DNA from: a virus
Lineage: Duplodnaviria > Caudoviricetes
IMG/VR virus record: IMGVR_UViG_3300037067_016777
Span: 1 to 64,000 of that record
Strand: one strand, 5' to 3'
DNA: 64,000 bases
Numbering within the stretch: position 1 is the stretch's first letter; every line of letters starts with the position of its first letter. This document shows, piece after piece, positions 41,094 through 45,612 of the stretch. Position numbers and translations under genes: made by a program. The notes below the pieces were generated by a model. It did no database searches. It saw only the letters and a list, made by a program, of their open reading frames with translations, and had not been told where the DNA came from.

Positions 41094-41348
41094 TCAGAAC
41101 CCATTCCTTTCTAGCCAGTCGACTTCAGCTTGTAGTGCGTCGGACCGTAGACGATATGGCCCTAGTTTCGGCCCGTTCACCGGCGACAAATCGGCCACCC
41201 AATTCACTTGCTCGCCACCATCGATAGGCTCGACATGGCTAGCACGTCTGATGGTGGTTTCGCCCTCATCGTAGAGAGTGACAAGGGCATCGTTGTGGAT
41301 GGCCGCAATGCTGCCGTCAGGTTTGATCGCAAGGCTAATAGCTGACAT
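41094..41348 (-). CDS. Conserved protein of the Ycf46/DUF1257 cluster
   Basis: RRASHVEP...W.ADLSPV.GP.LGP...RS.AL.AEV.WL. Confidence 0.75.
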   Translation of the reverse strand: MSAISLAIKPDGSIAAIHNDALVTLYDEGETTIRRASHVEPIDGGEQVNWVADLSPVNGPKLGPYRLRSDALQAEVDWLERNGF

Positions 41349-41517
41349 GATTCTGCTGCGGCCTTTCGTACATTTCCGGTGTGTCTTTGTCTGTGGAGAC
41401 GGTCCCGAGAGCCTTTTCGACGGCTTTCGTAACGTCTTTGCAGGATTGGCCCTTCACGCCGTTGACTTCGATTTTCGGCGTCCCGTCCGGAGAGACTGTG
41501 ATCGTGATTGTCTGCAT
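41335..41517 (-). CDS. DUF2997 family protein
   Basis: I.ITV.PDG...IEV.G..G.SC...T..VE.ALG. Confidence 0.85.
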   Translation of the reverse strand: MQTITITVSPDGTPKIEVNGVKGQSCKDVTKAVEKALGTVSTDKDTPEMYERPQQNHVSY

Positions 41518-41526
41518 GGTGTACTC

Positions 41527-41970
41527 CTACTTCATTGCGACCAAGCGGACATCGCCGGTCTTTGCGTCAGCTTTTTCGGTAACGTGCCACCCTTGGCTCT
41601 GCAACGTTCGAGCGGCGACGGCAACACCGTATCGCTGCTTAAGCTTTTGCATTCCTTGGCCGAATACCTTCGCCAAGCCACCGGGACCCCACTCGTCGGC
41701 AACGACCACGAATGATCCGTTTGGTTGTTTGACCAGGCCGATGTCGTAATTGCATTCCGGATGCGTGATGACGTGATCACACTTGCCGTAGTCTTTCGGA
41801 CTGATGCCCTGCTTGTATGCGGCATTGTCCGCACTGTAATCGTTCATCCAGCGACCATACCACCGGAAGGTTTTCTGGTCTCGGACGAGCTCAGCACCAA
41901 GAAACCTCGCGGCGACTTCCAGTGCTTTCAGGTCCCTTACTTCGAGTTGAATCGTGACGACGTGTGACAT
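41527..41970 (-). CDS. DUF1257 (Ycf35-like) family protein
   Basis: MSHVVTI....D...L..A...LG...YDIG...D.W...L.Q.Y. Confidence 0.8.
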   Translation of the reverse strand: MSHVVTIQLEVRDLKALEVAARFLGAELVRDQKTFRWYGRWMNDYSADNAAYKQGISPKDYGKCDHVITHPECNYDIGLVKQPNGSFVVVADEWGPGGLAKVFGQGMQKLKQRYGVAVAARTLQSQGWHVTEKADAKTGDVRLVAMK

Positions 41971-42236: not shown

Positions 42237-43199
42237 TTATTCGTCCTCCTCGTCTTCGTCATCGCCCAGATCGATCGCTCTGGCTGGCATATCACGCAAC
42301 AACTTATCCAGATTCTCCTTGACAGTTGACATACGTTCGGCGACGACAGTAGCAATTCCCTCGTCTCCCTTGATGGATTCCGGAGTCTGCCCAGAAAGAA
42401 CTTCTTTGGCTTCGTCGGCAAGCAGCGCAAGCTCCTTGTCTCCGCAGACGTTGCGGGCCGAGAATAGCTCCAAGAAATCGACGATCTTGGTGATAGTGGT
42501 CGTGGCGAATTGCTTCCGCTTTCCGTTCGGCTGCGGAGACAGCCGATCAACGAGGTGATCGACAAGTTTCTTCAATCCAACCCTCAAGGCTGCCTTGATT
42601 TGAAGGGCCATGTCCTTGATTTCGGTTGCCTGTCGGTTCCTTTCCTGATGGGCAATCGCCTTGCTTACCTTCTTGTCGCTGGAGGGCGACCAGTCGAACC
42701 AACGCCGTTCGACCCAGAACTTGGCACGGAGAGCGTTGCGACCAGCTTCGGTGCTCACATCGAAATAATTCGATGCAAGAAATTGATCTTGCAACTCGAT
42801 TTTGGCTTCCTCTACCAAGTCGGCGTATTCGGCGACGAAGTGATCAGCCCACTTATTGTAGGCTTGTTCGGCGTTGGTGATCTTGTCATTGAGGTCATCA
42901 ACGAGCGGCAGCGGGACCAGATGCGTCCCTTCGGAGAATGGAGAGCCTGGGACTTGTCGCTTGACGGCGTAGCGGCGCATGTCTCGGGCGATGAAGAGCA
43001 ACTGCTCGTAGTTATCGCTCTGTAGGATTTTCTTGCTCAATCCGAGACGCTGTTTGTTTGCAATCGTCTGGATTTTTGCAAGGTTCCCTGTCCGGATGAT
43101 GCCGGTCTTGTGAAACCGAAGCAGCAAACAGGTCGTTAATTGGAGGACGTTTGCTGTTTCTTTGGCGTCTTCGGATTGAGCGGTTTCGATGGCGGTCAT
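42237..43199 (-). CDS. DUF3150-like protein
   Basis: G..LVP...F...Y...L...F...Y helical pattern; cluster context. Confidence 0.65.
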   Translation of the reverse strand: MTAIETAQSEDAKETANVLQLTTCLLLRFHKTGIIRTGNLAKIQTIANKQRLGLSKKILQSDNYEQLLFIARDMRRYAVKRQVPGSPFSEGTHLVPLPLVDDLNDKITNAEQAYNKWADHFVAEYADLVEEAKIELQDQFLASNYFDVSTEAGRNALRAKFWVERRWFDWSPSSDKKVSKAIAHQERNRQATEIKDMALQIKAALRVGLKKLVDHLVDRLSPQPNGKRKQFATTTITKIVDFLELFSARNVCGDKELALLADEAKEVLSGQTPESIKGDEGIATVVAERMSTVKENLDKLLRDMPARAIDLGDDEDEEDE

Positions 43200-43265: not shown

Positions 43266-43550
43266 TTAGCGGGAGAGTGGCTCGAACTGTAGCATATCTC
43301 GGAAGCTTTGGTGCCAGATACGCCGATTGTCGGGAGGGAAGATGACCGGACCGAACCACGGCGAAACGATAGTCCAATAGCCCAATTCTACTCCCCTCTC
43401 ATCGAAGAAATAAACGATGGAGGTAAAAGGCTCTTTGGTTTCGTTACCGGAATACCAGTTGCGGCCGGTCAAGGTTCCACAACCAACTTGGGTGGCTCCG
43501 AGAGCCTTAAATTGTTCGATGATTTCGTAACTAACCTGATTTGCGAACAT
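43266..43550 (-). CDS. Hypothetical protein
   Basis: AAGGA RBS. Confidence 0.6.
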   Translation of the reverse strand: MFANQVSYEIIEQFKALGATQVGCGTLTGRNWYSGNETKEPFTSIVYFFDERGVELGYWTIVSPWFGPVIFPPDNRRIWHQSFRDMLQFEPLSR

Positions 43551-43634: not shown

Positions 43635-45200
43635 TCAGACGTGCAAAGCCCGATTGGGCTCATTGTTTCCCGGCAGCTTATAGACGCCTTCACGACTCGC
43701 GGACAAATAGCGTTCGTTCGCCGACTCCCGCAGCCGCTTGATTTCTTCCCGATCGGTCATACCAACGGGAGTGATGTAGGTGGCGGCTTCGGCAATCGGA
43801 ATGTTCATCCGGAACGCCTTGTCGCAGCAATGCTTGATGTCGCGAGCAGCCCATTTGTCGTCGTCCTTGAATGGCTTATCATCAAGCCCGTACTTCTTGA
43901 GGAGCACATCCCAGATTGGGCGACGTTCGACCTTCGGCGGTAGATCGAAGAAGAAAATGTCGGTGAATCGAGACTTCATTGCCCCCGATAGGCCGTCGAT
44001 GCTGTTGCTCGTGGCCAGCCACAGCGTTTCGTTGCCGCCGATAGCTTGCACGACCTTCAACGCCGACCGAATGAGGTTCTGGCTCTGGCCGACCAAAGAG
44101 CCCTGCATCGCACCAAGATCGATCCGGATAACGACGCGATCAAACTCGGCTCCGACTGCCTTGCAGATGGCCGACTTACCGCAGCCGGGAACACCTAGCA
44201 ACATGACACCGAACACATCAAAATCTTCCATCCAGGAAAGCAGCGTGCCTTCCTGGTCCTGATTGACGCCGCTCGTATCGCCACGAGCTGCCAAGCCGGT
44301 CTTCTCGATTTCGTCCAACCAGACGATAAGCTTGGGTTGTTTACGGCCGGTCATGATGCGGCTCAGGTAGGTCTTGATTTGGTCGAGGCCACCGAGATCC
44401 GTGAACTTCTCACCGCCACGATGGATCGAGAGTCCTTTCGTCTGTTCGACTTGCTTCCGCTTTGCAATCCAGCAATGCTCAAGGTCGATGCCACTCGCTG
44501 GGACCTGCCCTTCGACGGTCTGCGGACGTAAAGCCATTGCCACGACCTGTTCGGCTCCGAAGTATGGGAGGCCCTTAACGGCTTCGACGACGCGATCGAC
44601 CGCCTCGTCGCTCGCCAACGGCCGCTTCTTCTTGATGCCGGTCCCACCACAAACCTTGCAGCTTTTCAACCCATCACAGTCACAGAGGCTGACTTGTGCA
44701 TCGAGGTCCTTGACGCACTTTGCCAATTGCTCCTCGTTGGGCATCGGCTCTTCGATGATGATGACGTCGTTCTTGAGGCTCGCCGGAAGTTGGATTGTGT
44801 CGGCAAGCAATACGAGAGTGCAGCACGCCCGTTTGAAATCGTCGCGAAGGTTCCAAACGGCCTGACGGACAGTGGGGTTGTCGAGCCAGTCCGTTGCAGC
44901 TTGCATCGCGATGATGGAACCGCTCGGGATCAGGCTCAGATCTGAAATCGCCTTCAGGAAGCCAAAGGGCGACAGGGTGTTCAAATCGTCGTTCAGTGTG
45001 GCCACCGTTTTGGTGGCCATCTTGTTGTAACCATTCACGCCGCTGGCAGAGTTCCACATCATTAGCGCGGCATTCCGTGGGATTTCGCAGCAGTCCTTGA
45101 GGAGCGTCTGTATCGTGGCGGCAGGGTCAGAACATTCGATGCCGATGAGAGGCACACCAGCCTTGCGAGCAGCCAAAAATTGTTCAGTGAATGTTAACAA
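43635..45200 (-). CDS. Ycf46-like AAA+ ATPase with permuted Walker B/Walker A order
   Basis: DLGGLD, WLDEIEK, GVPGCGKS, SLVGQS, ATSN, RF.DIFFFDLP. Confidence 0.85.
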   Translation of the reverse strand: MLTFTEQFLAARKAGVPLIGIECSDPAATIQTLLKDCCEIPRNAALMMWNSASGVNGYNKMATKTVATLNDDLNTLSPFGFLKAISDLSLIPSGSIIAMQAATDWLDNPTVRQAVWNLRDDFKRACCTLVLLADTIQLPASLKNDVIIIEEPMPNEEQLAKCVKDLDAQVSLCDCDGLKSCKVCGGTGIKKKRPLASDEAVDRVVEAVKGLPYFGAEQVVAMALRPQTVEGQVPASGIDLEHCWIAKRKQVEQTKGLSIHRGGEKFTDLGGLDQIKTYLSRIMTGRKQPKLIVWLDEIEKTGLAARGDTSGVNQDQEGTLLSWMEDFDVFGVMLLGVPGCGKSAICKAVGAEFDRVVIRIDLGAMQGSLVGQSQNLIRSALKVVQAIGGNETLWLATSNSIDGLSGAMKSRFTDIFFFDLPPKVERRPIWDVLLKKYGLDDKPFKDDDKWAARDIKHCCDKAFRMNIPIAEAATYITPVGMTDREEIKRLRESANERYLSASREGVYKLPGNNEPNRALHV

Positions 45201-45245
45201 GGCAATTCTCCTGTGTTTCGGGGAGGACCTCCCTCCCTCTGATCT

Positions 45246-45274
45246 GTCATAGCACGAAATAGTTACGTGCTTAA
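45246..45274 (-). promoter_or_regulatory. Conserved phage promoter
   Basis: TTAAGC-17bp(..TCGTGC)-TATGAC; the TTAA holds the upstream stop. Confidence 0.8.
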
Positions 45275-45612
45275 CTCGTAGTCGTTGACGTTGCCAGAAA
45301 ACGAGATACTTTCCATCGGTTGCTGAGAAGAGCTTTCAGATGCGTTTTGTCCAGCGTGCTGTGTGTCATCAGGGTGGGATTGACGTTATCGGGTAGATTG
45401 TCAAGCACGTTCTGGAAGACGAAGGCAACCTCAATGGCCCCTGAATGTGGCTCTTCCCAAAGACGCACTTCACAATGCTTCATCAGCATTTCGCGATTAC
45501 TGCCCTTTTCAATCTTGAACTCTGGACCAAGCTTTCGCAAAAGTCGATCTCGCCAAGTGGTAGGATCGACGCCAACATCGCCCTCTAAGGAACAAGCTCT
45601 GTAATTTGGCAT
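45271..45612 (-). CDS. Hypothetical protein
   Basis: CAGGA RBS in cassette. Confidence 0.7.
   Translation of the reverse strand: MPNYRACSLEGDVGVDPTTWRDRLLRKLGPEFKIEKGSNREMLMKHCEVRLWEEPHSGAIEVAFVFQNVLDNLPDNVNPTLMTHSTLDKTHLKALLSNRWKVSRFLATSTTTS

Follow-up and report, generated by a model that had tools for sequence, protein, structure and literature searches.

Can the Walker B segment of an AAA+ (ATPases associated with diverse cellular activities) domain stand in front of the Walker A segment in a functional protein? The question is raised by a gene on the minus strand (43635..45200; TTG start, stop included) of a 64,000-nucleotide stretch of Caudoviricetes DNA (positions 1 to 64,000 of IMGVR_UViG_3300037067_016777), referred to below as the window; the source record, a virus genome of 269 kb in IMG/VR, belongs to a jumbo phage, and its CheckV completeness is 74%. 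The 521-residue product (P0001) is an AAA+ ATPase in which Walker B precedes Walker A. Analysis of the locus suggests that this protein is very probably a Cdc48-like two-module AAA+ ATPase derived from Ycf46-type ATPases, with two neighbouring segments of its core exchanged, and that the permutation itself is almost certainly real and ancestral to its clade.

The open reading frame (ORF) gives the order FTDLGGLD helix, Walker B, Walker A, sensor 1 and arginine (Arg) finger. Walker B (LIVWLDEIEK; D296-E297-I298-E299-K300 at 44315-44301) is followed by a Gly/Ser-rich loop and a helix with the end LLSWMEDFDV; after a gap of 45 residues between the two motifs comes Walker A (GVMLLGVPGCGKS; GVPGCGKS, G336..S343, amino acids 336-343, at 44195-44172), and 3' of it lie IRIDLG, the pore-loop sequence SLVGQS and a long helix, followed by sensor 1 (LWLATSN) and the Arg finger region (KSRFTDIFFFDLP). 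An earlier note on this DNA had given exactly these coordinates and this order, and had proposed a non-circular internal segment swap in a Ycf46-type AAA+ core with all motifs intact; both proposals have held up. The motifs of a classical AAA domain (PF00004) are all present, namely Walker A GxxGxGK[ST], Walker B hhhhDE (relocated), the sensor-1 Asn and the Arg finger, and only the collinear order Walker A - Walker B - sensor 1 is missing. Nor is the domain circularly permuted: the regions before residue 290 and after residue 391 are collinear with canonical proteins, and only two internal segments are exchanged. These are the relocated unit (residues 290-329, 44214..44333, minus strand), which comprises the Walker B strand, the pore-loop-2 region and helix alpha3, and the Walker A block (residues 330-391, 44028..44213, minus strand), which comprises strand beta1, the P-loop, alpha1, beta2, pore loop 1 (LVGQS) and alpha2. 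On the same strand follow the sensor-1 strand (ATSN, residues 395-399, with N399), alpha4 with the Arg finger R411, and strand beta5 (together residues 392-421, 43938..44027), and then an alpha-helical lid subdomain (residues 422-500, 43701..43937).

Because the core order is permuted, these proteins obtain weak and fragmented scores from Pfam and PDB profiles. Pfam AAA matches the ATPase in two pieces, the best of which covers profile positions 1-53 only, within the Walker A block; the score of 54.8 bits is nevertheless above the gathering cut-off of 21.2 bits. A canonical phage AAA protein, gp97 of mycobacteriophage Wildflower, is matched in one piece (positions 2-130). Human paraplegin (2qz4) aligns non-collinearly, with query residues 331-353, 263-331 and 391-439 falling on positions 41-63, 72-141 and 145-195, respectively. 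Collinearity is restored by de-permutation in silico, in which residues 290-329 were exchanged with residues 330-391 and the scores compared. Against gp97, the native sequence gives two non-collinear high-scoring segment pairs (72 and 32 bits), with the Walker B unit aligned to gp97 residues 373-411, downstream of the gp97 P-loop (residue 320), whereas the de-permuted sequence gives one collinear pair of 112 bits (E value 1e-30 instead of 9e-18). Scores against canonical paralogues from a Planctomycete genome rise likewise, from 169 bits (26.7% identity) to 223 bits (32.3%) for L016c, from 154 to 206 bits for L019c, from 150 to 203 bits for L014c and from 155 to 199 bits for L018c; the gain against canonical proteins is 40-54 bits. 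A permuted relative, gp103 of Tunturiibacter phage Tunturi_3, is matched better by the native order (293 bits, versus 223 bits de-permuted). The distance from Walker A to sensor 1 is 59 residues in the permuted family versus 99-100 residues in both the gp97-like and the Planctomycete canonical families, and therefore exactly one 40-residue unit has been moved. No Walker B-like sequence is left 3' of Walker A in the permuted family. The Asp of IRIDLG was considered as a substitute Walker B and rejected, because canonical paralogues carry a matching Asp (in LTLDVG) beside a Walker B of their own, which makes this residue a feature of beta2.

The order is common to the whole family. Homologs of the ATPase align over 97-100% of its length, and in a set of 259 of them (33-91% identity) 203 are permuted, none is canonical and 56 are unscorable; in the best 80 IMG/VR loci, where the ATPase gene was located by tblastn, the corresponding counts are 74, 0 and 6. 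The same census of the control families returned no permuted protein: 84 canonical and 36 unscorable among gp97-like proteins, and 83 canonical and 37 unscorable among Planctomycete proteins. Walker B is separated from the following Walker A by 44-48 residues in the permuted family, and Walker A from the following Walker B by 54-55 residues in both controls. At the DNA level, the three swap junctions (~44333, 44213 and 44027) are all spanned by Logan contigs from four independent studies of groundwater and landfill metagenomes, for example by an exact piece of 330 nt (43957-44286) from a study distinct from that of the best match, and no joints at the junctions are reported in these contigs. 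Joints that do occur fall in the variable N-domain, and one of them (44593->44696) represents relatives without a zinc-knuckle insert that is described below. Some bins have thin contig cover, from which nothing is drawn, and no RNA samples are among the matches listed for this DNA stretch. The earlier note had named two observations that would overturn its proposal, an assembly rearrangement and a canonical Walker B 3' of Walker A; neither was encountered, and the search that it had recommended for other proteins with Walker B upstream of Walker A found this order in every scorable member of the family (203/203 and 74/74).

In the established AAA+ topology, the strands of the sheet are all parallel and are ordered 5-1-4-3-2. 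The earlier note had suggested that a structure prediction could show whether this order is preserved, and a confident model and residue coevolution agree that it would be. An AlphaFold2 (AF2) model computed from a 103-sequence alignment has a predicted local distance difference test (pLDDT) score of 92.7 over the full length and 89.3 over residues 255-521. The predicted active domain consists of a strand (291-295), a helix (312-326), a strand (330-336), a helix (342-352), a strand (356-360), a helix (370-388), a strand (392-398), a helix (406-411), a strand (412-418) and then lid helices (423-494), which align with the lid of p97 D2; thus, the predicted model has the alpha/beta core and helical lid of the AAA fold. 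It superposes on p97 D2 (3cf0_A) with Z 17.5 and a root-mean-square deviation of 2.1 Å over 201 of the 244 spanned residues; the shortfall of ~43 residues agrees with the size of the moved unit, a segment that no sequential aligner can place. Mean-field direct coupling analysis (DCA) was performed on 241 family members (effective number of sequences, 202), and the top 70 couplings were inspected. They include pairs between beta3 and beta2 (V293-I360, W294-V357), between beta3 and beta4 (I298-A396, E299-S398, V293-W394) and between beta1 and beta5 (L334-F418), as well as packing pairs between alpha3 and alpha2 (e.g. W323-Q385); the fourth-ranked pair, L291-G388, connects the start of the Walker B strand with the end of alpha2, two elements that have a covalent connection in canonical proteins. 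Pairs of beta3 with beta1 or beta5 do not appear among the top 70. These couplings support placement of the moved strand in its normal slot between beta2 and beta4 (...4-3-2), and it is likely, as far as modelling can tell, that the sheet order is preserved in cis.

The proposed rearrangement would have transferred the 40-residue beta3(Walker B)-pore loop 2-alpha3 unit from the gap between alpha2 and beta4 to the gap between alpha0 and beta1, resulting in the chain order alpha0-beta3-alpha3-beta1-alpha1-beta2-alpha2-beta4-alpha4-beta5-lid around a three-dimensional core that is most likely unchanged (5-1-4-3-2). The new joins (alpha0 to beta3, alpha3 to beta1, and alpha2 to beta4) would all be helix-to-strand loops at the edge of the sheet opposite the nucleotide; because beta1, beta4 and beta3 neighbour each other in the sheet, each loop would need to reach only one or two strands further, with no change of crossover handedness. 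The topology of AAA+ proteins suggests that the swap is tolerated because the chain is cut only in loops at the sheet edge remote from the active site, so that the P-loop lysine, the Walker B Asp-Glu, the sensor-1 Asn and the Arg finger would still converge on ATP. The protein would then be a ring-forming unfoldase or remodeller of the classical clade with unchanged active-site geometry, its N-terminal half being D1-like and degenerate and its C-terminal half D2-like and active. The two-module architecture is indicated by alignment of the full-length model (residues 2-498) with p97 residues 210-763, the D1+D2 portion of Cdc48/p97 (400 residues, Z 18.6), from which it follows that the N-terminal half represents a D1-like module that has degenerated and has no P-loop.

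That the ATPase is active is probable from its sequence. Residues D296, E297, G336, G339, K342, N399 and R411 show no variation in an alignment whose columns average 40% identity, and five homologs of 690-860 residues (P0013, P0014, P0070, P0076 and P0086) contain inteins (Pfam Intein_splicing, Hom_end_hint and LAGLIDADG_3) exactly within the loop of Walker A, where they follow GVPG and begin with the Cys. Inteins typically insert at indispensable residues, and their presence in the P-loop therefore points to this site being indispensable.

The nearest relatives with the normal order are, as judged by sequence comparison, Ycf46-like ATPases linked to DUF1257 and DUF2997. They resemble the permuted ATPase in their two-module architecture (~495-520 residues; full-length alignment of 2-508 with 1-478), in the wording of their motifs (FxDLGGL, GVPGxGKS, LDxGxxxGSLVGQ, DExEK...DSGV...LLSW, ATxN and RFDxxFFxDLP) and in their DUF1257 and DUF2997 partner genes. 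The link to Ycf46 runs through the DUF2997-linked paralogues of Planctomycetes and a DUF2997 control match in Synechococcus elongatus. The canonical paralogues of Planctomycetes differ from the permuted protein in having Walker A, 54 residues, Walker B and then sensor 1 (83/83). In cyanobacteria, a canonical-order Ycf46-type AAA protein is encoded with DUF1257 (Ycf35) and DUF2997 in the slr0373-slr0374-slr0376 stress operon (PMC7496141, PMC4284462), which is strongly stress-induced and has no known function (PMC7496141, PMC13683863).

More distant systems share some of these features. The double-ring unfoldases Cdc48, p97 and VAT have the D1+D2 layout, the D2 fold (by comparison with the predicted model) and the sensor 1 and Arg finger of the classical clade, but the permuted protein is only ~14-20% identical to them, has no P-loop in its D1-like half and no p97-type N-domain, and has a permuted core. 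Wildflower gp97 is likewise phage-borne, with ~566 residues arranged as N-domain, AAA domain and lid, and is 28% identical to the de-permuted ATPase over 319 residues; however, its family has the canonical order (84/84) and forms a separate clade, and with Pfam no DUF1257 or DUF2997 was detected beside gp97. The gp97 family probably corresponds to phrog_8638, an unconfirmed assignment. A natural precedent for re-ordered motifs in an active P-loop fold is provided by the circularly permuted GTPases (YlqF/RsgA/YawG) of the GTPase branch, in which the order is G4-G5-G1-G2-G3 and the termini of the domain have moved. In contrast, the ATPase belongs to the ASCE (additional strand, catalytic glutamate)/AAA+ branch, the termini of its domain stay in place, and two internal neighbouring segments are exchanged.

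An exhaustive search returned 955 clusters of the permuted family at 50% identity (E<=1e-30). The canonical form is abundant in Planctomycete chromosomes, whereas the permuted form is present in 316 IMG/VR stretches (contigs of 10-388 kb), in one cultured phage (Tunturi_3) and, at E<=1e-70, in only one of 201 Planctomycetota genomes (G001). The permuted copy of G001 (L004) adjoins a transposase and a restriction-modification gene; the genome also encodes DUF2997 seven times, together with at least four Ycf46-like AAA paralogues of canonical order (loci L008-L019), and therefore both topologies coexist in one cell. In a tree of 85 proteins, for which the permuted rows were de-permuted before alignment, permuted proteins occupy one side of a branch with a Shimodaira-Hasegawa-like approximate likelihood ratio test value of 99, and a single change of state suffices. 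It looks as if the swap had a single origin in a mainly viral clade. The segment could have moved by way of a duplication and two subsequent deletions, or ~120 bp could have been relocated directly. Directly upstream of the permuted ATPase in L004 (5292-5930) is a gene for a 212-residue small AAA+ protein (GEPGVGKS ... IEELD), which was considered as a remnant of such a duplication and rejected: it is unrelated to the permuted ATPase, its best matches having E values of ~0.005-0.2.

The ATPase gene is followed on the minus strand by a set of genes, four of which (DUF3150-like, DUF1257, DUF2997 and the 84-residue protein) encode its partners: a 94-residue ORF with no family match (43266..43550), located between the ATPase and these partners; a 320-residue DUF3150-like helical protein (42237..43199; weak Pfam DUF3150 match, E 1e-3) whose atlas clusters are viral, with DUF3150 in 18% of members; a 61-residue ORF; a 147-residue DUF1257 (Ycf35-like) protein (41527..41970; E 3.6e-9); a 60-residue DUF2997 protein (41335..41517; E 5.7e-15); and an 84-residue protein of no named family (41094..41348), homologs of which follow DUF2997 in L004-L007. 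In the best 80 IMG/VR loci the ~300-residue protein is found in 76, DUF1257 in 69, DUF2997 in at least 44 and the ~80-residue protein in at least 39, in varying gene order. The same set is found 3' of the permuted ATPase on the chromosome of the Planctomycete, on a contig of Gemmatimonadetes and on another two phage-like contigs; DUF1257 and DUF2997 are also adjacent in L002 and L004-L007, and in Tunturi_3 they are immediately 3' of gp103. Compared with the canonical Ycf46-type module, the permuted module usually has the DUF3150-like protein in addition. The swap and the partner genes (DUF1257, DUF2997, DUF3150-like and ~80-residue protein) have probably been kept together under selection, and the DUF1257, DUF2997 and DUF3150-like proteins may act as adaptors or substrates; whether the ATPase is an unfoldase working with these three partners is an evenly balanced proposition. 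Among PADLOC defence models, the ATPase has no full-length match, only a 50-residue P-loop match to IetA (E 6e-8), and no partner has any match; NCBIfam gives short P-loop matches only (IteA at 24 bits versus a 510-bit cut-off), and matches in PHROGs are only to families of unknown function. The neighbours of the module include genes for Mom, RadC, Ku, an ATP-dependent DNA ligase and DUF4007 in the Gemmatimonadetes contig (L005), and for an Acb2/Tad1-like anti-defence protein, a DNA methylase and a resolvase in L007.

Several points weigh against the interpretation of the ATPase as a Ycf46-derived, active enzyme with an intact fold and a singly derived swap. A beta1-beta4 coupling is absent from the top 70 DCA pairs; AF2 and DCA share one alignment and are not fully independent; the strand neighbours are deduced from coevolution, together with superposition of the remainder of the domain, rather than from measured contacts in the model; and coevolution cannot separate docking in a subunit's own sheet from docking in that of its neighbour. 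The tree sampled two canonical families only, so that a canonical lineage might still be nested in the permuted clade, although none occurs among the 259 and 80 relatives, and predicted intermediates carrying Walker B both before and after Walker A were looked for and not found (0/499).

The most far-reaching alternative accepts the swap and its fold but regards the exchange as adaptive rewiring of allostery rather than neutral drift. The Walker B strand would hang directly on the alpha0 linker from the D1-like, partner-binding half, and alpha3, the helix of inter-subunit signalling, would run straight into the P-loop strand, so that binding of DUF1257, DUF2997 or the 300-residue partner could mechanically gate hydrolysis; the phage would then possess its own, differently controlled version of the host Ycf46 stress machine, possibly to hijack or counteract it. 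We consider this unlikely. As for the purpose of the ATPase in the phage, host takeover or stress-type proteostasis is a guess.

It is quite improbable that the order is real and the protein is a pseudo-ATPase, with a relocated Asp-Glu that misses the nucleotide and a scaffold role in which it binds ATP or nothing. The loop after Walker B is modelled with less confidence (pLDDT ~71), but all catalytic residues are invariant among proteins merely 35-45% identical, the P-loop inteins suggest an indispensable site, and coevolution sets the Walker B strand beside beta4 and beta2. Pore loop 1 (LVGQS) lacks the aromatic residue typical of many unfoldases, a peculiarity that it shares with canonical Ycf46-like paralogues. 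An exchange in trans, by which the beta3-alpha3 unit would fill the slot of a neighbouring subunit to form a domain-swapped, obligately interlocked ring, is very improbable: the moved unit does have loops at both ends, and a monomer model and couplings blind to the difference between intra- and inter-chain contacts leave room for it, but in the AF2 model the unit is confidently docked in cis, its connecting loops (283 to 291 and 326 to 330) are short, and the four-residue link from alpha3 to beta1 is hardly long enough to reach another subunit. The chance that the order is an assembly or sequencing artefact, a local mis-join in a metagenome-assembled phage genome, is negligible even though the window stems from a metagenomic IMG/VR record and none of the listed exact contigs covers the gene in full, since independent contigs from four studies and two habitats cross every junction with no joint reported and the same order recurs in 203 + 74 relatives down to 33% identity, among them a cultured phage (Tunturi_3) and a complete Planctomycete chromosome.

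Outside the permuted core, the gene has further features. The D1-like N-terminal half (residues 1-250, 44451..45200, minus strand), recognized from the alignment to p97/Cdc48 D1+D2 and from its secondary structure, contains a zinc-knuckle insert CxC...CxxCGGTG (residues 173-188, 44637..44684, minus strand; C173, C175, C181 and C184, then GGTG). The earlier note had reported a Cys-rich insert before the AAA domain; the insert is real, but it does not directly precede that domain, sitting instead in the lid of the D1-like module, and it is specific to a subclade. It occurs in ~35 of the 103 aligned homologs; mid-distance relatives have two DnaJ-type CxxCxGxG motifs, most distant relatives have no insert, and metagenome relatives skip the region (44593-44696). 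A Shine-Dalgarno sequence, AGGAG (45208..45212, minus strand), read directly from the DNA, is separated from the TTG by a 7-nt spacer. Immediately 5' of it is a promoter-like TTAA...TATGAC stretch, and the minus strand upstream of the start (45213-45290) has a G/C-rich inverted repeat (GAGGGAGGGAGG / CCTCCCC). The ATPase gene is situated in a GC-richer block of many small same-strand genes: GC content is 0.49-0.54 at ~24-51 kb of the window versus 0.41-0.47 in most of the flanks.

In a literature search, neither a permuted AAA or P-loop core of this type nor a Walker B ahead of Walker A came to light, although absence there is not proof, and the search gave nothing relevant on the function of DUF1257 or DUF2997. 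The published description of the Tunturi phage does not mention the ATPase. The word "permuted" in a jumbo-phage review refers to methylases. Across AAA+ proteins, the way in which the strands of the P-loop ASCE core are ordered and connected is regarded as invariable, and all profiles and annotation rules presuppose that Walker A comes first, Walker B second and sensor 1 third. That the ASCE core can be rewired is shown by the non-circular swap in this clade, which is large, old and evidently functional, and if the exchange did rewire allostery, it would be the first natural evidence that this core tolerates non-circular permutation. The permuted clade is a natural test case for the evolution and design of protein topology, with the cultured phage Tunturi_3 (gp103) as a tractable system, and through it phages are linked to the as yet unexplained stress module that Ycf46, Ycf35 and DUF2997 form in cyanobacteria and plastids.

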